A stretch of DNA of 64,000 nucleotides, from positions 1-64,000 of the IMG/VR virus record IMGVR_UViG_3300009034_000015. One strand, 5' to 3'. The translations under genes and the position numbers were made by a program. The stretch is from a virus. Positions 4,903 to 25,316 of the stretch are shown here, in pieces. A model generated the notes under the pieces. It was not told where the DNA came from, ran no database searches, and saw only the letters and a program-made list of their open reading frames with translations. Numbering within the stretch: position 1 is the stretch's first letter; the number at the start of each line of letters is the position of its first letter.

Positions 4903-5106
4903 TTAATAAATAAATCTATGAATAATTTCTCTTAAACTAAAACCAAAGGAATTTGATAAACTAATTATTATTTCCATCATTTTTTCTATTTGATGATCTT
5001 TAAATTTACAATTACTTAAATATCTAATTTCATCTACTAATTCAGTTTCAGAATATATACTTGTAATGCTTAATCGTTTAGCTAAATGAATTTCTATTGG
5101 TCTCAT
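4903..5106 (-). CDS. Hypothetical protein
   Basis: 67-aa coupled ORF. Confidence 0.55.
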   Translation of the reverse strand: MRPIEIHLAKRLSITSIYSETELVDEIRYLSNCKFKDHQIEKMMEIIISLSNSFGFSLREIIHRFIY

Positions 5107-5381
5107 TTCTTTTTCTTTTTAAACATATCTTTAATAAAATTATTAAATTTAAAATGAGGATACCTATGTTTTCCTATTATAATTTTATCACCTGTCTTTG
5201 GATTCCTACTTTTATGTTTATTCCTATTCTTAACAGTAAAGACTCCAAAGTTTACTATTCTAACTTTAACACCTTTTTTTAATTCAGTAATTATTAAATG
5301 AAAAAGATATTTTATTTGAGTTTTAGGAATCCCAGAATCTTTTGATAACTGAGTAATATTTGTAGTTTTCTTTTGATTCAT
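5103..5381 (-). CDS. hup: HU/IHF-family DNA-binding protein
   Basis: VRIVNFGVF...SRNPKTGDKI..PHFK signature. Confidence 0.9.
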   Translation of the reverse strand: MNQKKTTNITQLSKDSGIPKTQIKYLFHLIITELKKGVKVRIVNFGVFTVKNRNKHKSRNPKTGDKIIIGKHRYPHFKFNNFIKDMFKKKKK

Positions 5382-16792: not shown

Positions 16793-17332
16793 TTAAATTT
16801 TCTCCTTAACCTGAGCAATTAAATTTCTTAATGAACTTGGTAAATTTGAAGAAACTAAAAACTCAGCATTATAATTATATTTCTTTATTAATTCTTTATA
16901 GTAAGTTTGTAATTGCATCTGCATATCTATATAATCTTCACTATAATCAATTTTAGGAACTCTCTTTTTTCTTCTTGAGATTACATCTTCTCTACTAACT
17001 GAAAGATGAAAAATTTTATAATCTAAATCTTTTAATAATTCATTATAAACTGATCTTTGAAAATAAATTCCTTTGCTTCTAAACCAAGAGACAGATACTA
17101 AATCAGATACAAAACCTCTATCTAATATTAAATCCAAGTTAAACTTCTTTACTAATTCAAGTATTGTCTTATTAATACCAAAGTTAATTAAATCAAAAAG
17201 ATTATAATCTTTATGCAATTTATATACAAGTCCAAGATTTTCAGAAAATAAAGGAATAGCCAAACTCTTGCTAACTTCTCGTGAAAGTGTAGATTTTCCT
17301 GAACAACTTATACCTTCAAATATTATTAGCAT
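16793..17332 (-). CDS. Deoxynucleoside monophosphate kinase (TMPK-like), copy A
   Basis: FEGISCSGKST P-loop and LILDRG. Confidence 0.8.
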   Translation of the reverse strand: MLIIFEGISCSGKSTLSREVSKSLAIPLFSENLGLVYKLHKDYNLFDLINFGINKTILELVKKFNLDLILDRGFVSDLVSVSWFRSKGIYFQRSVYNELLKDLDYKIFHLSVSREDVISRRKKRVPKIDYSEDYIDMQMQLQTYYKELIKKYNYNAEFLVSSNLPSSLRNLIAQVKEKI

Positions 17333-17340
17333 TTTATACC

Positions 17341-17865
17341 TCAATAATAAATATTTTTAATTTGTCCAATCATTTCTTTTATAGATAATCTTGAATCAAA
17401 ATAATATACCTTTTCATATCGTTTAGAAAATTCTTGAAAATAATTTTGAAAAATTATTAATTCATTTAAATAACCTTCGGTAACTCTATTATTTTTTTCT
17501 AATAATCTTTTTTTAAGAGTTTCTTTATTTATAACTAAAAATATAATAATATAATTTAAATTTATTAAACGTTCATTATAGCTTTTTAATTTTAAACTAA
17601 TATCTTTATGCCTAATAAATGAAGTTTGTACTAAATCAGTTAAAAAACCTTCATCTAATATTAAATCAAAATTAAATTTTTTAGTTATCTCTAAAATAGT
17701 TTTATTAACTCCAAAATTAATTAAATCAAAATTATCAAAATTACCTCCAAGTTCATCAAGTAAATCTGGCTGTTTAATATATTCTGAAATAGCTAAAGAT
17801 TTACTTACTTCTTTACTTAAAGTAGTTTTACCAGAGCTTTTAATACCTTCAATTATTATTAACAT
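17341..17865 (-). CDS. Deoxynucleoside monophosphate kinase-like, copy B
   Basis: IEGIKSSGKTT P-loop and LILDEG; clear tandem paralog of copy A. Confidence 0.75.
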   Translation of the reverse strand: MLIIIEGIKSSGKTTLSKEVSKSLAISEYIKQPDLLDELGGNFDNFDLINFGVNKTILEITKKFNFDLILDEGFLTDLVQTSFIRHKDISLKLKSYNERLINLNYIIIFLVINKETLKKRLLEKNNRVTEGYLNELIIFQNYFQEFSKRYEKVYYFDSRLSIKEMIGQIKNIYY

Positions 17866-17915: not shown

Positions 17916-18044
17916 TAGTAGAATTTAGCCTTATAAATAATTTTATAATACCTTATCAGGCTTCTCAGATTAGCCCAGGTTAAGACTTAACTAATAAAGC
18001 CTTAGCTTACCCCTAATTTAGAACTAAAACCCCTTAAAAGGCAT

Positions 18045-18083
18045 AAAAAAAGGGATAAGCTAAATTAATAACTTATCCCTTTT
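18045..18083 (-). terminator. Intrinsic terminator
   Basis: AAAAGGGATAAG/CTTATCCCTTTT stem followed by a U tract. Confidence 0.8.
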
Positions 18084-18111: not shown

Positions 18112-18363
18112 TTAATCATCATCCTCGTCCTCGTCTTGATCCTCATCCTCATCTTCTTCTTCATCCTTTGTCTTTTTGGACTTCTCCTTTTTCTTCTTGC
18201 CCTTGTCGCCCTTCTTCTCCTTCTTTTTCTTTTCCTTCTTCTCCTTCTTTTCTGCCTTTTCTGCTGCCTTCTCGTCTTTGTCCTTGGCCACAACTACAAG
18301 TTTCCTACCCAGATCCTTTGCCTGGTCAGGAGTCAATCCAGTTACAGTAATAGTAATTTCCAT
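18112..18363 (-). CDS. Small Lys-rich/acidic polyampholyte protein (83 aa)
   Basis: AAAGGAGGTG RBS, own promoter and terminator; MEITITVTGL.. followed by a K-rich block and a D/E tail. Confidence 0.8.
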   Translation of the reverse strand: MEITITVTGLTPDQAKDLGRKLVVVAKDKDEKAAEKAEKKEKKEKKKKEKKGDKGKKKKEKSKKTKDEEEDEDEDQDEDEDDD

Positions 18364-18428
18364 TAAGCTCACCTCCTTTCTTTTTTAAGATAATTAAGTA
18401 AAGGTATTTACTACCCACTACTTACTAA

Positions 18429-18457
18429 ATTATATAAAAAGAAAATTAAAAATTAAT
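18429..18457 (-). promoter_or_regulatory. Promoter ATTAAT-N17-TATAAT
   Basis: Exact motif and spacing. Confidence 0.7.
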
Positions 18458-18513
18458 TAATCCCTCAAAAAATAGCCTTAGCATTTAACTAAGGCTAAAT
18501 TTTCAAAGATTAA
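18457..18513 (-). repeat. Conserved intergenic hairpin, copy 1
   Basis: TTAATCCCTCAA...TTCAAAGATTAA with variable inner stem. Confidence 0.9.
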
Positions 18514-18514
18514 T

Positions 18515-20329
18515 TTAAATTAATCTAAACTGCCTTATTAAAGCAAGCAAATCTCTTAATAACTGGTCTTGCTTATCAATACTAATCTTTAGCACCGGAA
18601 ACTTAAACCAGTCAACAAAAGTATTTAGTTCAATCCTATTAGTTTGTTTATACCAAATATTATTACTATAAGCATCATCATAAGCATCTTCAGGCACAGC
18701 AAAAATAACTTGACAACGATTTCTACTTGCTTTAATAATTAAGTCCTTAAAAGACTTATTGGCATTAATAGCACAGTTCTCACCAAGATCAGTAAAGACA
18801 ATCATAATAGATTTTAAATAGCCCTCTACCTTTAATTGATTTAAAAGAAAATGAGTAGAATATAAAATTGGAGTAATACCGATATGAGGTATTTCATCCC
18901 CTCTTATTATATCTACTGAACAGCGTGAACCAATAACATGCTTACCAGTAGTAAACCACACTTGGTCAAAATCAATTAAGCCCTTAAAGGTCTCAGAAAG
19001 GATAGCATAAATTCTTTTTTCTAAATCAAAATAACTAGTCATAGAACCAGAAATATCTCCAGAAAAAATAACTTTAGCTCCCTTTTCTAATTGAGGCAAT
19101 TTAAAAACCCTTACAGAAAATTCGTGCTTAGATTTAATATACTGTTGAATATCTATTAAATTTCCAGTAATATCTAAGTTAGTTTTTAATTTCTGTCTTA
19201 AAACAAGGGCTTTTCTAAGTTTCTTTGCCAGTTCCTTATCTTCAACACTTTCGCATTTAGGAACAGTTTTTTTACCTTTTTCAGTAATAGAAACTTCTTT
19301 TTTATTTAAACCTTGTTTAAGATCAGATTCAACTTTTTCCTTAGCAGAAAATTTCTGCATTAAATCCTTAGCACCTTGAACCAATGATGATAGTTCAGCT
19401 ACCTCATCCTGCTCTTCAAAGTCCATTCCATCTGTTATGCTTTCCTCTAAGTCAGTTTGCATTAGGTTAGAAAAAGAATCCTCATTATCATAAGAATCAA
19501 ACTCTTTGCTTTCATTCTCAGAATCTGAATCTTCCTTTTCTTTAGGCTGCTCAGTAGCATCCTGTTCTTGCTCTTTTTCTTTATGCTGATCAGAATTATT
19601 TTGTCCTTGCTCATCCTCTTGATCTTCAGAACCTGAACCTTCTTGCTGACTATTATCATAAGGCTCATCTAAATCCTCATCAACATCCTGGCTTTGCTCA
19701 TCCTTACTTTCTTGGCTTTCTCCTTGTTGTTTATTTTGGTTTTCTTCTTCTTGCTGCCTTTTTTGTTTAGCTTCATTTATTTCCTCATTATAGAGTTTAT
19801 AAACTTGCTCACCAAGTTCTACCACTCTTTTATTTGAAATAAACTTACTTTCAAACTCAGTTCTTATTTCTCCTAACTTTTCATTTAGTTTAGGAAAAGA
19901 ACTTTGACCAATAAAAGCATCAAGAACCCAGTCAGGATAAAAAGAAATAATAGGTTTATAATACCTATTTGTTTTTCTTTTTTTCCTTTTACCAATTAAA
20001 TCCAAATAAAACCAAGGAACAATTCGCCCTGCCATAGTATAACTTCTAAGGTCAAATAAACCATTAGTAATAGCTCGTTGATAATGCTCAACAATCTGAT
20101 TATTAATTATAGATTCTTTAACTTTATCTAAGCCAAAAGTTTTTGACCAATAATCAGCTTCTGCTATTAAATAGTTATGATAACCTGAAGCTTTATTACT
20201 AACAGGCTTGCTACCTAACCTTGCTCCTCTTAGAGCTAATGCTATCGCATTCCAGATTTCATTTGACTTATTAAGACTATCTGCCGTCCACCGATCTTTC
20301 TTCTTAGTCTTCTTCATAACTACCTCCAT
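18515..20329 (-). CDS. VWA (MIDAS) domain protein, CobT/NorD-like
   Basis: DISGSM MIDAS motif, ITP, VFTD; central acidic/Gln-rich linker; paired with a MoxR ATPase. Confidence 0.82.
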   Translation of the reverse strand: MEVVMKKTKKKDRWTADSLNKSNEIWNAIALALRGARLGSKPVSNKASGYHNYLIAEADYWSKTFGLDKVKESIINNQIVEHYQRAITNGLFDLRSYTMAGRIVPWFYLDLIGKRKKRKTNRYYKPIISFYPDWVLDAFIGQSSFPKLNEKLGEIRTEFESKFISNKRVVELGEQVYKLYNEEINEAKQKRQQEEENQNKQQGESQESKDEQSQDVDEDLDEPYDNSQQEGSGSEDQEDEQGQNNSDQHKEKEQEQDATEQPKEKEDSDSENESKEFDSYDNEDSFSNLMQTDLEESITDGMDFEEQDEVAELSSLVQGAKDLMQKFSAKEKVESDLKQGLNKKEVSITEKGKKTVPKCESVEDKELAKKLRKALVLRQKLKTNLDITGNLIDIQQYIKSKHEFSVRVFKLPQLEKGAKVIFSGDISGSMTSYFDLEKRIYAILSETFKGLIDFDQVWFTTGKHVIGSRCSVDIIRGDEIPHIGITPILYSTHFLLNQLKVEGYLKSIMIVFTDLGENCAINANKSFKDLIIKASRNRCQVIFAVPEDAYDDAYSNNIWYKQTNRIELNTFVDWFKFPVLKISIDKQDQLLRDLLALIRQFRLI

Positions 20330-20337
20330 TATAATAG

Positions 20338-20389
20338 TTAATCCCTCAAAGAATCCCTTTATTTCTAAAGGGAAACTTTCAAGAATTAA
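20338..20389 (-). repeat. Conserved intergenic hairpin, copy 2
   Basis: TTAATCCCTCAA...TTCAAGAATTAA. Confidence 0.9.
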
Positions 20390-20505
20390 GTTAGATTCTT
20401 CTTTATCTTTCTTTCTATGCCTTCCTTAATTATTGAATAAGCTAACCACATGCCTATTAATAATCCACTAAGAAAAGCAACTATATGAGATAAATAAAAA
20501 GCCAT
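20386..20505 (-). CDS. Small membrane protein (39 aa, not in ORF track)
   Basis: GGGAGG RBS; MAFYLSHIVAFLSGLLIGMW...; stop lies in the hairpin's terminal TTAA. Confidence 0.65.
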   Translation of the reverse strand: MAFYLSHIVAFLSGLLIGMWLAYSIIKEGIERKIKKNLT

Positions 20506-20532
20506 TAATACCTCCCTTTCTAAATATCAATT

Positions 20533-20700
20533 TTAATTGCTTTCATACCAATCAAGAAGAGTCTCTATCTCGGTTACAATTAAATTTAAATTAGCCAGTT
20601 CATCTTCTTGCCAATTTTCAATTTGACGATAACGCAAATTTTCAGGCTTGAGTTTTTGCATTGCCTTTCTTAATTTAGAAAATTGATTTTGATTTGCCAT
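20533..20700 (-). CDS. Hypothetical protein (55 aa, not in ORF track)
   Basis: GGGAGGT RBS; MANQNQFSKLEKAMQ... Confidence 0.65.
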   Translation of the reverse strand: MANQNQFSKLRKAMQKLKPENLRYRQIENWQEDELANLNLIVTEIETLLDWYESN

Positions 20701-20717
20701 CTAAATTACCTCCCTTT

Positions 20718-21518
20718 TTAAATATCAATACCAAAAGTTCCTCTTACTCTTTCAGCATAGGTTTGATAATCCTCATTCTCAAACTTACCAGCAGTTAATT
20801 TGAGAACCTCTTCGATAGTAAAACCATTTAAGGTTGCCTTACCCATTTCAACTAAATCCCTTGTTGATAGAGCATAACTAAAACCAGTAGTCCTTGTCTG
20901 AACTGCAAGGTTAACAAGGGCAGAAACTAAATTCTGATCCTCTAAACCAATTTTCTGGAGTATCTTAATCTCTTTTTTAGCAGAAGGATAGTCCATATTA
21001 ATAATCCAGAACCTTGATTTAAGGTCTTCATTTAGTTCAAATGCTCCACCATAAACACTTGGATTCTGAGTTCCTACTACTATCATCGGATCTTGGTATT
21101 CATAGCGCTTACCTATTTCCTTTACTGTGATTCCTTGTTTAAGGTCGAGTAAAGAGTTAAGCATCTTTTGACTACCTGGAGGTAAAGCATTTAATTCCTC
21201 TAAAAGAAGAATAAACTTTTCACCCCTATTCTGATACTTAATAGCAGTAGGTAAAATCCCAAGTGAGAAATAGCCTTCAGAACCATCAAGTCCATAATGA
21301 CCAATTAGCTGAGCATATCTAGTTTCCTCTGAGCATTCAGCAATTAATAGTTTATACTTATTCTTTCTTGCATAAGAATAAACCATTAGGGTTTTACCAA
21401 TTCCTTTTGGGCCATTTAAGATAACATGGCTTAACTTGGCAAAATCAAGTTTTTTGCCAACATAAGGAATTGAACCTCTTAATTTAGGTTTTACCAGTTT
21501 CTCATAAACCTTTTTCAT
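20718..21518 (-). CDS. MoxR/CbbQ/NorQ-type AAA+ ATPase
   Basis: GPKGIGKT, LLLEELN, TQNP..YGG..LNEDLKSRF, LSTRDL. Confidence 0.9.
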   Translation of the reverse strand: MKKVYEKLVKPKLRGSIPYVGKKLDFAKLSHVILNGPKGIGKTLMVYSYARKNKYKLLIAECSEETRYAQLIGHYGLDGSEGYFSLGILPTAIKYQNRGEKFILLLEELNALPPGSQKMLNSLLDLKQGITVKEIGKRYEYQDPMIVVGTQNPSVYGGAFELNEDLKSRFWIINMDYPSAKKEIKILQKIGLEDQNLVSALVNLAVQTRTTGFSYALSTRDLVEMGKATLNGFTIEEVLKLTAGKFENEDYQTYAERVRGTFGIDI

Positions 21519-21545
21519 AAATCACCTCCATATTAAAAAAGTTTT

Positions 21546-21598
21546 TTAATCCCTCAAGGAATACCTGGAATTAATCCAGGTAAACCCTCAAGGATTAA
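21546..21598 (-). repeat. Conserved intergenic hairpin, copy 3
   Basis: TTAATCCCTCAA...CTCAAGGATTAA. Confidence 0.9.
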
Positions 21599-21837
21599 TG
21601 CCCTAAAAGCTTATTAACCCTCTCAACCGTTCGGATAAGTTTCCGAATAGCCTTTCGATGCTGAGTAGATTTTACATACTTAGCACCCTTAATAGCAATC
21701 TTAGCAATAGCCAAGGACTCAGTAAGAGTTAAAGGCTTTTTAATTCCTTTAACTTTTCTTTCTGTCCTTTTTAACTGCTTTTTCTGCTTTTTTGGCCTTC
21801 CCGGTTTTCTTTTCTTTTCCTTTGCTTTCTTTTTCAT
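21595..21837 (-). CDS. Small basic protein with AT-hook-like motif
   Basis: RKPGRPKK; AAGGAG RBS; stop lies in the hairpin end. Confidence 0.65.
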   Translation of the reverse strand: MKKKAKEKKRKPGRPKKQKKQLKRTERKVKGIKKPLTLTESLAIAKIAIKGAKYVKSTQHRKAIRKLIRTVERVNKLLGH

Positions 21838-22066
21838 CTACACTCTCCTTTCTTTTAGCGAGTTTTTCTGCTAGCTCTCTTAAATGGTTCTTCTTCTTTT
21901 CATCTTGCTCTTTTTCCCTTTTAGCCTTAATCCATTTTAAAAGAGCTTCTTTAGACCAGATGACTAGCCTATTATCCTTTATTCTCTGGACAACAACTTC
22001 TTCTGAAGTTTGATAGACTATTTCAGCTGGTCCACTTCGAAAGTAAACTTTCCAGCCAATTACCAT
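21749..22066 (-). CDS. Hypothetical protein
   Basis: AGGAGGTG RBS; 3' end overlaps the next gene. Confidence 0.65.
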   Translation of the reverse strand: MVIGWKVYFRSGPAEIVYQTSEEVVVQRIKDNRLVIWSKEALLKWIKAKREKEQDEKKKNHLRELAEKLAKRKESVDEKESKGKEKKTGKAKKAEKAVKKDRKKS

Positions 22067-22393
22067 TTACACCTCCTTTCTTCCTTCTTTAAGGCCAATC
22101 GAAACTTCACTACCATCTACAGCAGTTCCACAGACCATTAAAGGTTTCTTTGGTTTAAGAATCTTTCCATTTTTCAGAACAAGATAACTAAATTTTGGGG
22201 ATCTCTTTTTCATTAATTCCTTACCCTTTGGAGTATTACCTATAATAACACACCTTAAAGAAGAATTAATTCTAAGAGATTCTAACTTTTCTTTTGCTTG
22301 CTTGATAGTTTCAGTATTAAAACAAAAGAACATTTTAGGATCATCCCCTTTAGGTATCTGCGTCTGAAACCTATCCTTTTTCTTAAAACCCAT
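22067..22393 (-). CDS. Hypothetical protein
   Basis: AGGAGGTG RBS, 108 aa. Confidence 0.7.
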   Translation of the reverse strand: MGFKKKDRFQTQIPKGDDPKMFFCFNTETIKQAKEKLESLRINSSLRCVIIGNTPKGKELMKKRSPKFSYLVLKNGKILKPKKPLMVCGTAVDGSEVSIGLKEGRKEV

Positions 22394-22735
22394 TTACACC
22401 TCCTTTCTTTTTCTACACTTCTTGCATCGTTTATAAAGATCACTAAAGGATTTTTTTAAATCAACTTTAGTATTCTTTTCGGTATTATCTAAATTTAATA
22501 AAATATCTCTACTATATTTTATATAAGCATTATGATTCAGATTACGCTTCTTCATTTCCTTAGCTAACAAATCATGACGATCCCAAATAGCTAAGGGTTC
22601 TACAAATTGCTGTAAGGCAAGTTTGCCTAATTTTCTTCCTTTTGCAATATGACCAGCAAGTTTATGCAATTCATAATGTTCACCTAATAAATGCTGATTA
22701 CATAATAAGGAAGGTTTTAGCATCCACATCCTCAT
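22394..22735 (-). CDS. denV: Pyrimidine-dimer DNA glycosylase / endonuclease V family
   Basis: MRMWM..P..LCNQHLLGEHYELH and RHDLLAKEMKKR..NH. Confidence 0.8.
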   Translation of the reverse strand: MRMWMLKPSLLCNQHLLGEHYELHKLAGHIAKGRKLGKLALQQFVEPLAIWDRHDLLAKEMKKRNLNHNAYIKYSRDILLNLDNTEKNTKVDLKKSFSDLYKRCKKCRKRKEV

Positions 22736-22764
22736 TAGTTACCTCTCTTTTTAAATTAATAAAT

Positions 22765-22815
22765 TTAACTCCTCAATAAAGCCCTTTAAAATAAAGGGCT
22801 AAGTTCAAAAGTTAA
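22765..22815 (-). repeat. Conserved intergenic hairpin, copy 4
   Basis: TTAACTCCTCAA...TTCAAAAGTTAA, with compensatory changes in the outer stem. Confidence 0.88.
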
Positions 22816-22818
22816 ATT

Positions 22819-23034
22819 TTATTCATGCTGCTCATCATCTTCTTTTTCTTCTAATTCTAATTCATGGCATTTACTAAAAGTTTCAATTTGAGCTTGAATA
22901 GAATAAAATAACTTTTCAACTTCTCTTATTGTTAAATTTACACCATGAATTGAACGCCCAATCATTCTTCCCTCAAATCCAGTAACTTTGCTAATCTCAA
23001 TGTTAAAAACCCCTCTTTCTTTTTCATCTATCAT
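22819..23034 (-). CDS. Hypothetical protein
   Basis: GGGAGG RBS; lies between two hairpins. Confidence 0.7.
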   Translation of the reverse strand: MIDEKERGVFNIEISKVTGFEGRMIGRSIHGVNLTIREVEKLFYSIQAQIETFSKCHELELEEKEDDEQHE

Positions 23035-23062
23035 CTTAACCTCCCTATTTAAAGTTAATAAA

Positions 23063-23115
23063 TTAATCCCTCAATAATCCCCTTAAATAAATTAAGGGGA
23101 AAGTTCAAGGATTAA
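23063..23115 (-). repeat. Conserved intergenic hairpin, copy 5
   Basis: 23048..23107 is identical to 24007..24066 (60 bp). Confidence 0.92.
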
Positions 23116-23285
23116 TAAGCTAAAAGATCTAATCTCTTTTTTATTTCCGCCTTTTCCTCTTTGCAAACTTCACGAAGATCACAATACTTACAAAATTTAT
23201 GCTTAATTTTCTTTGGATTTTTATTCCTTAAATGAGAAATTAAGCAACCAAAAGCATTTTCTTGTTTAGAAGTTCTTAAAGCCAT
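23112..23285 (-). CDS. Small Cys-containing protein (57 aa, not in ORF track)
   Basis: AGGAGGAG RBS; MALRTSKQ...C...CKYC.....C; stop in hairpin end. Confidence 0.7.
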   Translation of the reverse strand: MALRTSKQENAFGCLISHLRNKNPKKIKHKFCKYCDLREVCKEEKAEIKKRLDLLAY

Positions 23286-23313
23286 TTTACTCCTCCTTTT
23301 CTAAATTAATAAA

Positions 23314-23370
23314 TTAATACCTCAAGGAATTACCCTAATTAAAAATTAGGATAAAACCTTCAAACATTAA
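23314..23370 (-). repeat. Conserved intergenic hairpin, copy 6
   Basis: TTAATACCTCAA...TTCAAACATTAA. Confidence 0.85.
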
Positions 23371-23462
23371 TTCCTTTTAGCTACCTTAGCTAGAGTTAAT
23401 TCTAACTTATTAACTCTGCATTTTAAAAGCCAGATAGCTCTTTGAATTTTTATTAAAGTCAT
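23367..23462 (-). CDS. Micro-protein (31 aa)
   Basis: AAGGAG RBS; MTLIKIQRAIWLLKCRVNKLE...; stop in hairpin end. Confidence 0.55.
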   Translation of the reverse strand: MTLIKIQRAIWLLKCRVNKLELTLAKVAKRN

Positions 23463-23475
23463 AGCCAGTCTCCTT

Positions 23476-23574
23476 TTACTTCTTAATTAGCTTTATAGTT
23501 TCTAAGTTAAAAACTAAAGCAATCTTCTGAAGAGTTGACTTCCTTCGCCTTCTAACTTTAATAATCCTTTTCAT
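23476..23574 (-). CDS. Basic micro-protein (32 aa)
   Basis: GGGAGG RBS; MKRIIKVRRRRKST... Confidence 0.55.
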   Translation of the reverse strand: MKRIIKVRRRRKSTLQKIALVFNLETIKLIKK

Positions 23575-23595
23575 TTTAAACCTCCCTTCAATTAG

Positions 23596-23647
23596 TTAAT
23601 CCCTCAATAAAGCTCTCCAATTAAGGAGAGCTAAGTTCAAGGATTAA
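23596..23647 (-). repeat. Conserved intergenic hairpin, copy 7
   Basis: TTAATCCCTCAA...TTCAAGGATTAA. Confidence 0.92.
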
Positions 23648-23991
23648 ATCTTTTTCATCCTTTCTTGCAATGCTGCCAGTTGTTTTTCCCTAAATTCATT
23701 ATAAGCTTGCTCAGTTACAATTCGGGTTCCACCATGACCTTTATCAATAGTCGAGATCATAATTGGAAAAATAATATAAGGTTTTCTTTCTGCCTCGGCA
23801 TCTGGAGTTATTTCAACCTGGTCTGCAAATCCTTCAGTTTTAATAATCTTTGTTACTACGCCCCAATGCTCTGGATTTGCCATATCCCCTCGGTTATAAA
23901 CTCTAAGACCAATTTCAATCTCTTCTGTTTTCATCCCTGCTTTTCTACTTATCGCCTTGGATTCTTCAAAGCATATTTCTTTTAGCCTCAT
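23644..23991 (-). CDS. Hypothetical protein
   Basis: GGAGG RBS; stop in hairpin end. Confidence 0.75.
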   Translation of the reverse strand: MRLKEICFEESKAISRKAGMKTEEIEIGLRVYNRGDMANPEHWGVVTKIIKTEGFADQVEITPDAEAERKPYIIFPIMISTIDKGHGGTRIVTEQAYNEFREKQLAALQERMKKI

Positions 23992-24021
23992 TTTAAACCT
24001 CCATAGTTTAAAGTTAATAAA

Positions 24022-24074
24022 TTAATCCCTCAATAATCCCCTTAAATAAATTAAGGGGAAAGTTCAGAAATTAA
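24022..24074 (-). repeat. Conserved intergenic hairpin, copy 8
   Basis: TTAATCCCTCAA...TTCAGAAATTAA. Confidence 0.92.
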
Positions 24075-24244
24075 TAACAGCCACTTAAAGTTCTCATATT
24101 ATTATGATTAGCCTTAACTATTTTAGCATGCCTAATACAAAGATCTTCATAAATTTTATGATTTGGAAAGACTTTTACACTTCTCACATTTTTTCTTAGC
24201 TTACCACAAATATCACATTTTTTCATTTTTACTTTAGTCTTCAT
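24071..24244 (-). CDS. Small Zn-finger-like protein (57 aa, not in ORF track)
   Basis: AAGGAG RBS; CDIC...CIRH; stop in hairpin end. Confidence 0.7.
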   Translation of the reverse strand: MKTKVKMKKCDICGKLRKNVRSVKVFPNHKIYEDLCIRHAKIVKANHNNMRTLSGCY

Positions 24245-24267
24245 TTTATTCTCCTTTTAAATAGTTA

Positions 24268-24324
24268 TTAAAAACTCAGTTAAGCCCACTTTAAATAAAT
24301 AAAATGGACTTAATGAGGTTTTAA
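24268..24324 (-). repeat. Long hairpin of similar size but different type
   Basis: TTAA-bounded ~25-bp imperfect stem, G-U pairs on the minus strand, no G.G mismatch. Confidence 0.65.
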
Positions 24325-24350
24325 AAGAATAAACTCAGATTTACTCTTTT

Positions 24351-24714
24351 GGAGGTAATGGAGGTTATATTGTTCTTTACTTTAAATTATAGCCCACTTA
24401 TCTTTTTGGTTTCACTCTATCCACCCTCAAAGCTTTTATGGTAACTCCCGGTTAAAAACCTATGTTTACCACTAATAACTTCCCAGCTCCCGAATCCAAC
24501 CTCAGTTAATTCCTTGCTCTTTATTTCTTTTTAATTACCATCGCTAGAATAGCTAAGAAATAAAGCCAAGATAAGTTTCTTAAAATCTATTTTAAGAACC
24601 CTAGAGTGATTAAGCTTTTATAGCCCTTTAACTTACCGCCAGCTTTAATGTTGCCGAGGTAGCAATAACCTCAGAATTAAAGCTCTCCTTCAGGCTATAA
24701 TGATAACCTACTCC
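24351..24714 (-). ncRNA. Putative large structured RNA / 5' leader
   Basis: Seven mutually nested helices found by eye in a GC-enriched, gene-poor segment downstream of a promoter. Confidence 0.55.
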
Positions 24715-24796
24715 GTTATGTAAAAGAACTAATAGAAGTATTATAAAAAAGCTCTTAATTTCTTTTTTAATTTCCCTCATCATACTTTAATATATA

Positions 24797-24813
24797 AGCT
24801 AAAACTGTGCCAA
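24797..24813 (-). promoter_or_regulatory. sigma54 (RpoN)-type -24/-12 promoter
   Basis: TTGGCACAGTTTTAGCT: GG-N10-GC with a perfect TGGCAC; one mismatch in TTGC. Confidence 0.7.
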
Positions 24814-24910
24814 AATTAGGATAAATAGGCAAAAACTCGTTTTAAGGCTATTTTATAAGGGATAATAGGGTTTTACTATAAGTTATTTTTATAATATCTG
24901 ATTACAAAAA

Positions 24911-25011
24911 TAGGTAATATTTACCTAATTTAAGCCTAAATTGTCAGTAGTTCTATAAACCCTTTATTTCATTAGGTTTTTTATGATTTTAAATTAGGTA
25001 AAAATTACCTA
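24911..25011. promoter_or_regulatory. Pair of palindromic sites (AGGTAA-N3-TTACCT) forming a 23-bp inverted repeat
   Basis: 24911..24933 versus 24989..25011: one mismatch in 23 bp; each copy is itself palindromic. Confidence 0.65.
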
Positions 25012-25280
25012 TAAATTACAAAAAGTAATAGCCTTTTTCCTTAAAACACAGTTTATTAACTTTTAAGCCCCTTAAAATAATCAAAAATAATTAAAAAAAC
25101 TTTAATCTACCTTATCACAATTATATAATTATACTTAATTATATTATAATTATATTTAATTAAATATAATAAGCTCCATAGATAGCTTATAAGGGCTTTT
25201 AGGCTATTAAGCCTTAACTTAACCTTTAATTTTAAAACTTAGCTATATCCCTACCTATCCTGGTTAGTAATTAGATAATA

Positions 25281-25316
25281 AAAAAGCCCTAATATAAACT
25301 AATTATTAGGGCTTTT
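25281..25316 (-). terminator. Intrinsic terminator
   Basis: AAAAGCCCTAATA/TATTAGGGCTTTT stem with U tract at the end of the replication operon. Confidence 0.8.

Follow-up and report, generated by a model that had tools for sequence, protein, structure and literature searches.

Hairpins that carry a stop codon in their base divide a phage operon and belong to a family of structured RNA elements found in unrelated phages

What does a structured sequence do that recurs eight times between the genes of a single phage operon? This question is raised by the 64,000 nt of DNA analyzed here (the window), which represent the first 64 kb of the 81.6-kb IMG/VR virus record IMGVR_UViG_3300009034_000015, a record with a CheckV completeness estimate of 57%. 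The eight elements, named c1 to c8, lie on the minus strand and are bounded by TTAA at both ends in all eight copies. They belong to an uncatalogued family of intercistronic structured phage RNA that is found in unrelated phages and is distinguished by a stop codon within the base of the hairpin, by an invariant G.G mismatch and by its conservation across unrelated phages. The elements are listed below with their folding free energies (dG, in kcal/mol), their scores in two covariance models (R1 and R2) and the open reading frames (ORFs) next to them.

18457..18513, minus strand: hairpin c1, 57 nt, dG -26.4, R2 62.6 bits; end of the series, placed after the gene of a 604-aa protein (18515-20329)
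20338..20389, minus strand: hairpin c2, 52 nt, dG -23.7, R1 70.9 bits; nucleotides 2-4 are the stop of a 39-aa membrane-peptide ORF (20386-20505), and the 604-aa gene lies downstream
21546..21598, minus strand: hairpin c3, 53 nt, dG -31.1, R1 74.4 bits; nucleotides 2-4 are the stop of a basic 80-aa gene (21595-21837), and a CobS-like AAA ATPase gene lies downstream
22765..22815, minus strand: hairpin c4, 51 nt, dG -19.6, R1 67.7 bits, R2 56.5 bits; the stop of a 71-aa gene (22819-23034) lies 4-6 nt upstream of the hairpin
23063..23115, minus strand: hairpin c5, 53 nt, dG -24.0, R1 76.1 bits, repeat family D2; nucleotides 2-4 are the stop of a 57-aa gene (23112-23285)
23314..23370, minus strand: hairpin c6, 57 nt, dG -20.4, R1 66.2 bits, R2 52.6 bits; nucleotides 2-4 are the stop of a 31-aa ORF (23367-23462)
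23596..23647, minus strand: hairpin c7, 52 nt, dG -25.5, R1 66.9 bits, R2 55.8 bits; nucleotides 2-4 are the stop of a 115-aa gene (23644-23991)
24022..24074, minus strand: hairpin c8, 53 nt, dG -21.0, R1 72.7 bits, R2 54.7 bits; nucleotides 2-4 are the TAA stop of a 57-aa gene (24071-24244)

The mRNA strand of each copy was folded with RNAfold and the same architecture was obtained in all eight cases: a base of 8-9 bp is followed by a G.G mismatch at position 10 and by two or four more pairs, and above these come an internal loop containing a tandem U.U (and an extra C.A in four of the eight copies) and a perfect apical stem of 8-11 bp. The stems cover 23-27 positions including the mismatches, that is, more than two helical turns, and they are intercistronic. 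Folding free energies ranged from -19.6 to -31.1 kcal/mol with z-scores between -4.0 and -7.8, and equally stable structures were found in 0-1 of 200 shuffled sequences, whereas the plus strand of the same elements reached only -9 to -20.6 kcal/mol. When 44 non-overlapping 60-nt segments of the mRNA strand with a dG of -17 or lower were ranked over the whole record, the eight copies were among the 13 most stable ones (dG -20.9 or lower). The R1 model detected precisely eight copies in the 81.6-kb record, with 66-76 bits on the minus strand as compared to 21-35 bits on the plus strand.

The pairing has been maintained while the sequence changed. In the alignment of the eight copies (A2), 91.7% of the cells were paired versus 77.8% after shuffling, and 11 of the 23 pairs changed on both sides with pairing kept. 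The covariation score of 0.486 (0.185 in shuffled alignments) was reached by none of 500 shuffles and was lost when the partners were slid against each other. The window copies contain 17 G.U wobbles versus four A.C combinations, every one of the latter within a loop, and the corresponding family-wide numbers are 54 and 12. This excess of G.U over A.C favors RNA and indicates folding of the sense strand. A first-pass annotation of this DNA, made from the letters alone, had described eight TTAA-bounded, strand-specific and covarying minus-strand hairpins with a G.G at position 10, an upstream TAA within the first TTAA of six copies and a ribosome-binding site (RBS) close behind each copy but the first; in all these respects its description agreed with our results.

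In order to find out whether the element is peculiar to this phage, the arms were scanned in IMG/VR, in one genome per prokaryote species and in metagenomes of the Joint Genome Institute, and candidates were then screened by folding and with the covariance model. Most pattern matches in these three public collections were due to chance or to coding sequence and did not fold. About 23 further copies with the full architecture were retained from about 17 phage, prophage or metagenome contigs with GC contents of 27-56%, including the following larger records.

G002: complete 45.6-kb phage with terminal repeats, family member
G001: 60-kb provirus, 56% GC, family member
G003 (identical to L046): provirus fragment with two copies, both family members

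Further members were found in contigs binned with Tenericutes, Epulonipiscium and rumen genomes, and many in short contigs from anaerobic digesters and other metagenomes. The model R2 was built from 20 outside copies alone, containing no window copy. It nevertheless recovered all eight window copies with 52-63 bits (E-values of 1e-8 to 1e-10), and no other match above 20 bits was found on the same strand of the window. The membership of the window elements in a real family is thereby independently confirmed. One R2 match each was obtained in the complete phages G001 and G002, so the eight copies in the window phage represent an expansion.

All members share the core UUAAUYYUUGAA, followed by a variable hairpin and by UUGAGGGAUUAA. 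The 9-bp base is formed by UUAAUYYUU paired with GAGGGAUUAA, and it is followed by the G.G mismatch, A-U pairs, the internal loop and a GC-rich, variable apical stem. Across 28 distinct copies, U1, U2, A3, A4, U9 and G10 as well as the 3' residues G, A, U, U, A and A were invariant, and the G.G mismatch was located at position 10 from the UUAA in 28 of 28. As the arms had been specified in the scans, their conservation is partly given by construction; five copies detected by the model only kept the same core (L046:1906, L154:942 with its duplicate L174:71, L165:1401 and L170:454). The 3' arm is nearly always UUGAGGGAUUAA, whereas positions 6-8 of the 5' arm vary between C and U with pairing to G kept. 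A near-invariant 3' arm opposite a drifting 5' arm is compatible with an additional, single-stranded function of the 3' arm. Between copies, c5 and c8 excepted, the apical stems show no sequence relation. In the 19 distinct outside copies, 15 pairs changed on both sides and none of 500 shuffles reached the covariation score. One claim of the first-pass annotation has to be narrowed at this point: the tandem U.U, described there as invariant, is invariant within the window phage and is not kept in the wider family.

The history of individual copies could be followed in three contigs. The hairpins of L011 and L162 are identical at 49 of 51 positions (96%), with 300-nt flanks of 68% and 74% identity, and in L150 the upstream gene is homologous (34-48% protein identity) and is followed by a related hairpin, but the downstream gene is a different one. 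These comparisons indicate that the hairpin is inherited together with the gene whose stop codon it contains and that it is under purifying selection. The family members are flanked by small accessory genes without relation to one another. These include a DnaJ-domain match that is weak and below threshold and a fragment of an ArdC-type metallopeptidase; the rest could not be assigned to any family. Between the two hairpins of L046 (1996-2661, plus strand) a 221-aa protein is encoded, with an N-terminal half made up of STGD/STGN/STGY units of 6-7 residues that are repeated in tandem about 14 times.

BLASTP comparison of four larger phage records revealed no common partner protein except for an HU-like protein and a glycosyltransferase, each of them common to one other phage group. 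The 92-aa HU/IHF-like protein of the window (5103-5381, minus strand) is the only protein shared by BLASTP with the G001 and L162 phages (26-33% identity). A profile search for the CobS-like protein yielded seven loci with 25-41% identity, none of which had a hairpin, indicating that the hairpin is not tied to CobS. Among the candidates scored, which were a part of the total, no further copy was detected in 80 genomes related to the Tenericutes metagenome-assembled genome, which has one copy. The first-pass annotation had proposed a covariance-model search of Rfam and of phage contigs. In Rfam (release 15), the whole window gave no match at the gathering score and nothing credible at E-values up to 5, and the search of contigs led to the cross-phage family described above. 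A match to RAGATH-32 (23 bits, plus strand) was rejected, because its alignment ignored the structure of the model and lay on the wrong strand. No description of such an element was found in the literature by motif string or keyword.

The position of the hairpin relative to the flanking reading frames is a further common feature of the family. The upstream TAA forms nucleotides 2-4 of the element in six of the eight window copies (c2, c3, c5, c6, c7 and c8), and in c1 and c4 the stop is located 4-6 nt upstream of the element. An RBS and a start codon follow within 8-30 nt behind all window copies except c1. Among the 32 copies listed for the family, four of them duplicates due to overlapping contigs, 22 have the TAA at nucleotides 2-4. 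In the other ten the stop lies 4-7 nt upstream (five copies) or no upstream ORF was found (five copies, mostly at contig ends). A downstream start was identified for 30 of the 32, mostly 19-32 nt past the hairpin and preceded by a Shine-Dalgarno (SD) sequence. The RBS of the next gene usually lies about 10-20 nt behind the hairpin. Conservation is strongest for the stop codon at nucleotides 2-4, for the U9-A pair, for the G.G at position 10 and for the SD-like 3' arm, and these point to the ribosome at least as much as to RNase III.

The hairpins also coincide with the borders of exchanged genes, which could be observed in four related digester contigs, L142, L152, L154 and L174. All four contain an identical family hairpin (hairpin A) after a 157-aa gene that shows the weak DnaJ-domain match mentioned above. 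Downstream of hairpin A, a gene of 186 or 183 aa is present in L142 and L152 and an unrelated gene of 78 or 77 aa in L154 and L174. Homology between the two pairs of contigs stops 9-24 nt past hairpin A and returns at the first base of a second hairpin (hairpin B), a variant with the same plan, namely a stop codon in UUAA, the G.G at position 10, an internal loop and a GC-rich top. A third variant, hairpin C, closes the next cassette. The variants are as follows; coordinates refer to the strand of the hairpin, which is the stored strand of L152 and L174 and the reverse complement of L142 and L154.

Type B: arms UGCUUAAUACUUGCUG...UAUGGAAUUAUUAAGCA, stop in UUAA, G.G at position 10, GC-rich top
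Type C: arms UUAAUCCCUGCUG...UAUGGAAGGAUUAA, stop in UUAA, G.G at position 10, GC-rich top
L142 ~663-730 and ~1228-1282: variant hairpins
L152 ~626-690 and ~2114-2166: variant hairpins
L154 ~1425-1490: variant hairpin
L174 ~916-982: variant hairpin

An exact pattern of type B gave no match in IMG/VR. In the four contigs a hairpin is present at nearly every junction, and the swapped unit comprises the leader and the ORF between two hairpins. Since both hairpins stay while the gene between them changes, this fits homologous exchange at conserved connectors rather than a site-specific system in which the hairpin travels. The contigs with this replacement are relatives within the family. Relatives of the window phage are not among them, and none was found by a peptide-pattern search of IMG/VR. 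The suggestion of the first-pass annotation that the hairpins could be homology anchors for cassette shuffling is directly supported by these alternative genes located exactly between two hairpins. Within the window genome, c5 and c8 stand between unrelated genes, yet they agree at 94% of their positions, 15 nt of the 3' flank included. The three substitutions that separate them are C/U changes in the 5' arm, each of which keeps the pairing. This near-identity indicates recent copying or gene conversion within the genome.

A separate observation concerns the loop of hairpin B. L152 and L174 are 99% identical over 874 nt, but the 8-nt loop differs at five of eight positions; it is T-rich in L152 (~650-657) and A-rich in L174 (~940-947), L142 and L154, the two versions being roughly reverse complements. 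The difference may represent an inversion by template switching at a DNA hairpin.

With structure, strandedness, covariation, family membership, stop-codon register and swap boundaries established, we tentatively favor the reading that the hairpins are intercistronic mRNA elements for processing, stability or insulation which double as recombination boundaries. They would act after transcription as intercistronic punctuation in the polycistronic mRNA of the minus strand. The irregular duplex of 23-27 bp would be cut or bound by a host factor specific for double strands, most plausibly RNase III, at the lower stem or at the internal loops, as at the early sites of T7. The upstream cistron would be left ending in its own stop codon and a protective stem, and the downstream cistron would start with a purine-rich, SD-like GAGGGAUUAA leader freed from the 3' arm. 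Each cassette could then be expressed and could decay independently of its neighbors. As a secondary effect, a common sequence of about 55 nt that recurs at many junctions would supply related phages with the homology for exchanging the intervening genes. Cleavage, stabilization and the identity of the trans-acting factor are what we infer; cutting by host RNase III is plausible by analogy.

The analogy is with two phage systems. Dunn and Studier reportedly described RNase III processing hairpins between the early genes of coliphage T7 (R0.3, R0.5, R1, R1.1 and R1.3). Like these sites, the elements are irregular hairpins of about 50-60 nt at the junctions of one long transcript, are repeated within an operon, and combine a conserved lower stem and internal loop with a variable upper stem. 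Unlike the T7 sites, with which they have no sequence relation, they carry a stop in the base and an invariant G.G and form a family across unrelated phages; their cleavage is our proposal. In SP82, Hue et al. are said to have linked an RNase III site to a stabilizer in 1995. The likeness to this site lies in an intergenic phage-mRNA hairpin in an SD-using host and in an adjacent purine-rich, RBS-like stretch that could stabilize the downstream RNA (PMC4838370, PMC7509114). The half-life of the SP82 phage mRNA was shorter upon mutation of the ribosome-binding site (Hue et al., 1995, cited in PMC7509114). Mapped RNase III sites of Bacillus subtilis and Escherichia coli are consistently paired duplexes with an enrichment of U-G wobbles in the distal box (PMC11780869, PMC6212723). 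This enrichment is compatible with the conserved U8.G of the hairpins, the comparison being a loose one.

Several observations weigh against such a processing role. Genes for RNase III or for proteins with a double-stranded RNA-binding domain (dsRBD) were not found in the 81.6-kb record (57% complete), and the hairpin-bearing phages have no phage-encoded RNase III, dsRBD protein or other protein in common. SPO1, a sequenced relative of SP82, gave no match to R2 at E-values up to 1, which separates the hairpins from the SP82 site by sequence. RNase III needs no conserved sequence; near-identical 12-nt arms over a range of 27-56% GC are thus not explained by this enzyme alone. The pseudo-symmetric UGA/UGA core appears to be centered on the single mismatch, unlike the dyad of RNase III, which lies between two pairs. 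Moreover, the single R2 matches in G001 and G002 indicate that punctuation of a whole operon is a special expansion and not the general state of the family. Finally, the fixed distance between the stop and the G.G is better explained by a ribosome-linked mechanism.

For these reasons, namely the conserved arms, the stop at nucleotides 2-4 and the constant spacing from the stop to the G.G, a ribosome-linked mechanism is a strong rival, possible in our view though on the unlikely side. The hairpin would be a device gated by translation termination: the helicase of the terminating ribosome would melt precisely the 9-bp base, halt at the G.G and expose the SD-like 3' arm GAGGGAUUAA immediately ahead of the following RBS, and thereby either couple downstream initiation (by hand-off of the ribosome or as a standby site) or insulate the cistrons. 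Takyar, Hickerson and Noller reportedly located the helicase of the ribosomal entry channel about 11 nt from the first P-site nucleotide in 2005. When the A site is occupied by the UAA, hairpin position 9 falls at +11 and the G.G at +12 from that nucleotide. The stop-codon register described above agrees with this idea, as does the G.G of types B and C, which is at position 10 from the UUAA even where the helix starts 2-3 nt earlier. Conservation is concentrated in the 3' arm (GAGG plus GAU) and the 5' arm need only pair, the downstream start is mostly found 19-32 nt behind, and the ribosome with its anti-SD tail would be the only factor reading sequence that hosts of 27-56% GC have in common. 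On the other hand, the downstream genes have strong SD sequences of their own outside the hairpin, so that masking is not evident; an RBS is missing behind c1 and L169; the stop precedes the element by 4-7 nt in c1, c4 and a few further copies; and the argument consists of a numerical coincidence together with inference. We consider it doubtful that the hairpin is a ribosome-register device in the full sense, in which nine pairs are opened up to the G.G, the SD-like arm hands the ribosome on or gates expression or decay of the next cassette, and the same hairpin is the connector for exchange of accessory genes.

It is likewise improbable that the hairpins are leaky intrinsic terminators or attenuators which grade transcription down the operon, with arms that are incidental or serve as homology for recombination. 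The model for this is provided by the promoter-early stem-loop elements (PeSLs) of T4-type phages, which consist of a sigma70 promoter and a terminator (Arbiol et al., 2010, PMC2839356) and whose stem-loops terminate effectively and mediate shuffling (PMC2839356). The hairpins resemble PeSLs as short, repeated regulatory cassettes between small non-essential genes, among which recombination between copies shuffles genes. Their perfect GC-rich apical stems are followed by UU and by 4-6 U within the next 8 nt, runs of U6-U9 are found in some AT-rich outside members such as L142 and L109, and c1 and c2 were flagged by the terminator scan. The hairpin c1, at the end of the operon, is also the sole copy with a U6 run straight after the apical stem and the sole window copy without an RBS close behind. 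Still, c1 and c2 were the only copies to pass the scan, c2 only weakly, most copies have no U-tract, and the GC-rich members L011, L162, L150 and the GAACCUGC...GCAGAC group have two or fewer U after the stem. The conserved base cannot aid termination, since it forms only once the polymerase is past the U-rich stretch. The promoter half of a PeSL is missing, given that 38 promoter-like sites were counted versus 36.4 in shuffled sequences, and such sites were not consistently placed at the hairpins; overlap with the stop codon is a further difference from PeSLs. Also, the true terminators of this phage look different:

25280..25316, minus strand: canonical intrinsic terminator, perfect stem and U-run, closing the upstream replication operon, in contrast to the eight hairpins
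18044..18083, minus strand: canonical terminator, perfect stem and U7 (local fold), after the next downstream gene (18112-18372)

The view of the first-pass annotation that the elements are not plain terminators is thus in line with our data. Taken as a whole, that earlier reading, which had proposed processing sites or sites for a specific protein, is partly supported.

Less probable again is a DNA-level element, either a mobile hairpin resembling miniature inverted-repeat transposable elements (MITEs) that inserts at TTAA/TAA or a folded single-strand site resembling attC; both would move or exchange cassettes, the effect on RNA being secondary. The Correia elements of Neisseria and the enterobacterial repetitive intergenic consensus (ERIC) sequences, palindromic intergenic repeats of small size that are transcribed together with genes, are MITE-type repeats which form RNA hairpins, have short target duplications and affect mRNA processing or stability. 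Such an origin could account for the TTAA at both ends with an insertion point exactly on stop codons, for the same arms in phages without detectable common proteins, for the near-identity of c5 and c8 with their flank between unrelated genes, and for the swaps bounded by hairpins. The changed loop of hairpin B between contigs of 99% identity would be a mutation of the DNA-hairpin type. As in attC, the folded site lies at the 3' end of a cassette gene, has a conserved base, fixed unpaired positions and a variable top, and marks cassettes that can be exchanged. The TTAA is self-complementary and part of the stem, so that a target duplication would be indistinguishable from structure. However, no pair of filled and empty sites and no cargo-bearing version (arms apart with a gene between them) was found among the loci examined. 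Copies of Correia and ERIC elements are alike over their full length, whereas here the arms alone are alike and the tops covary; apical stems without common sequence but with compensatory changes indicate long selection on structure, not recent copying. Against mobility stand also the inheritance of the hairpin with the upstream gene across 34-64% protein identity and the excess of G.U over A.C, which favors RNA. The swapped unit leaves out both hairpins, as in homologous exchange and unlike attC cassettes, and the attC cores (RYYYAAC/GTTRRRY), bottom-strand folding and IntI are opposed here by arms of the type UUAAUYYUUG/GAGGGAUUAA, in which the attC core consensus is absent, and by folding of the sense strand. 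No tyrosine recombinase (PF00589), serine recombinase or Y1 (HUH) transposase or RAYT (PF01797), the last being expected for hairpins of the REP or IS200-IS605 type, was detected in the 81.6-kb record, 57% complete.

We regard it as very improbable that the hairpins are binding sites for a small phage protein which reads the G.G lower stem, for example an arginine-rich antiterminator of the lambda N/boxB type or a translational regulator. The fixed non-canonical G.G and the U8.G wobble would suit such recognition, a 32-aa ORF with the motif KVRRRRK (23476-23574, minus strand) directly after c7 is a candidate, and two 57-aa Cys/His-rich ORFs in the cassettes (24071-24244 and 23112-23285) may encode small zinc-binding proteins. 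In contrast, no BLASTP-shared protein was found among the hairpin-bearing phages, although such short peptides would escape detection, and conservation across very different GC contents argues for a universal host factor. The readings listed are not mutually exclusive. Three other candidates were discarded: a -35 box in the 3' arm (TTGAGG), followed after 16-17 nt by a -10 box, fits some AT-rich copies only and transcripts would start within the RBS; translational bypassing or readthrough is at odds with downstream genes that have their own RBS and start codon; and the fold is too simple for the known classes of self-cleaving ribozymes.

Two more distant systems can be compared with the hairpins. 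The intercistronic expression element (IEE) of plastids is a protein-bound single-stranded site. It is likewise a short sequence, by which polycistronic transcripts are converted into units of single genes that are stable and can be translated (PMC2230500), but in a different kingdom and by a different mechanism, so that the comparison is an analogy only. The extended start-associated sequences (ESAS) of Cluster K mycobacteriophages have 17-bp arms with spacers of 4-13 bp and are tied to a 13-bp start-associated sequence (SAS) at the start codon (Pope et al., 2011, PMC3203893). Like the hairpins, they are conserved imperfect inverted repeats with a variable spacer just 5' of many starts in the same orientation; the function of ESAS is not known. 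Unlike the hairpins, to which they have no sequence relation, ESAS are confined to one phage cluster. In summary of these comparisons, the element lacks a feature that defines PeSLs, attC sites, terminators, MITEs and elements of the repetitive extragenic palindromic (REP) type. It resembles the T7 and SP82 sites, PeSLs and ESAS in role or layout and has no sequence in common with any of them.

The genomic setting of the hairpins is that of a tailed phage, as inferred from PHROG matches. The GC content of the window is 22-34% and its minus strand carries essentially all genes. Besides the following genes, a portal protein, a prohead protease and helicases were among the PHROG matches.

58.4-59.9 kb: terminase (PHROG match)
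38.9-41.7 kb: tape measure protein (PHROG match)
11.5-14.3 kb: large DNA polymerase (PHROG match)

A close isolated phage was not found when the 6-kb hairpin region was compared with isolated phages by blastn, and the sole tblastn matches of the AAA ATPase were cyanophage CobS proteins with about 30% identity. The hairpin operon, the region of which was called early in the first-pass annotation and is at most a candidate early region, sits between two replication-gene blocks. In the order of the minus strand, the canonical terminator at ~25280-25316 is followed by a non-coding stretch of 1.1 kb, by a hairpin with U5 (24280-24313) and by the operon, the genes of which were assigned as follows from the ORF list, Pfam and PHROGs.

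18515..24244, minus strand: hairpin-divided operon of ~14 mostly tiny genes in eight cassettes of 1-4 genes each
22394-22735, minus strand: DenV-like pyrimidine-dimer glycosylase, in the operon (Pfam/PHROGs)
20718-21518, minus strand: CobS-like AAA ATPase, in the operon (Pfam AAA_5; PHROG 249, 'porphyrin biosynthesis')
18515-20329, minus strand: 604-aa acidic protein, in the operon, with a long acidic middle and without a Pfam match
24280..24313, minus strand: 14-bp hairpin with U5, dG -23.4, just 5' of the first gene of the operon (terminator scan)

The other products of the operon are encoded by small genes without assigned function. The nearest homologues of the CobS-like protein, P0002, P0006 and P0007, have 52-59% identity and were found on metagenome contigs. 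The order of the CobS-like gene, two tiny ORFs and the 604-aa gene (18515-21518) recalls the CobS/CobT pairs of cyanophages. The hairpin at 24280-24313 may be an attenuator or a hairpin of the 5' untranslated region, and with an R1 score of 14.9 bits it is outside the family. The 1.1-kb non-coding stretch (24245-25282, minus strand) contains a 24-nt inverted repeat, the arms of which (24910-24933 and 24989-25012) are 96% complementary. Outside the hairpin operon, a 113-nt direct repeat with 78% identity (17096-17208 and 17629-17741, spacing 533 nt) reflects two tandem paralogous genes (16793-17344 and 17341-17865).

The accessory-gene regions of phages are mosaics of small genes without assigned function, and how such genes are reliably expressed after they have been shuffled into new neighborhoods is not well understood. 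The hairpin, which sits on the stop codon, has a fixed G.G and marks the edges of swapped genes, is a candidate for a standard connector that is concrete and open to testing. As a signal for processing or insulation, it would extend the T7/SP82 paradigm to a sequence-defined family and could possibly supply a compact part for synthetic operons, and an action through the ribosome at termination would make it a translational coupling element of a new kind. Should it prove to be both a ribosome-register device and a connector for exchange, it would constitute a previously unrecognized plug-and-play punctuation system of operons. The covariance models help to find more members of the family and to draw gene boundaries in uncultured phages.

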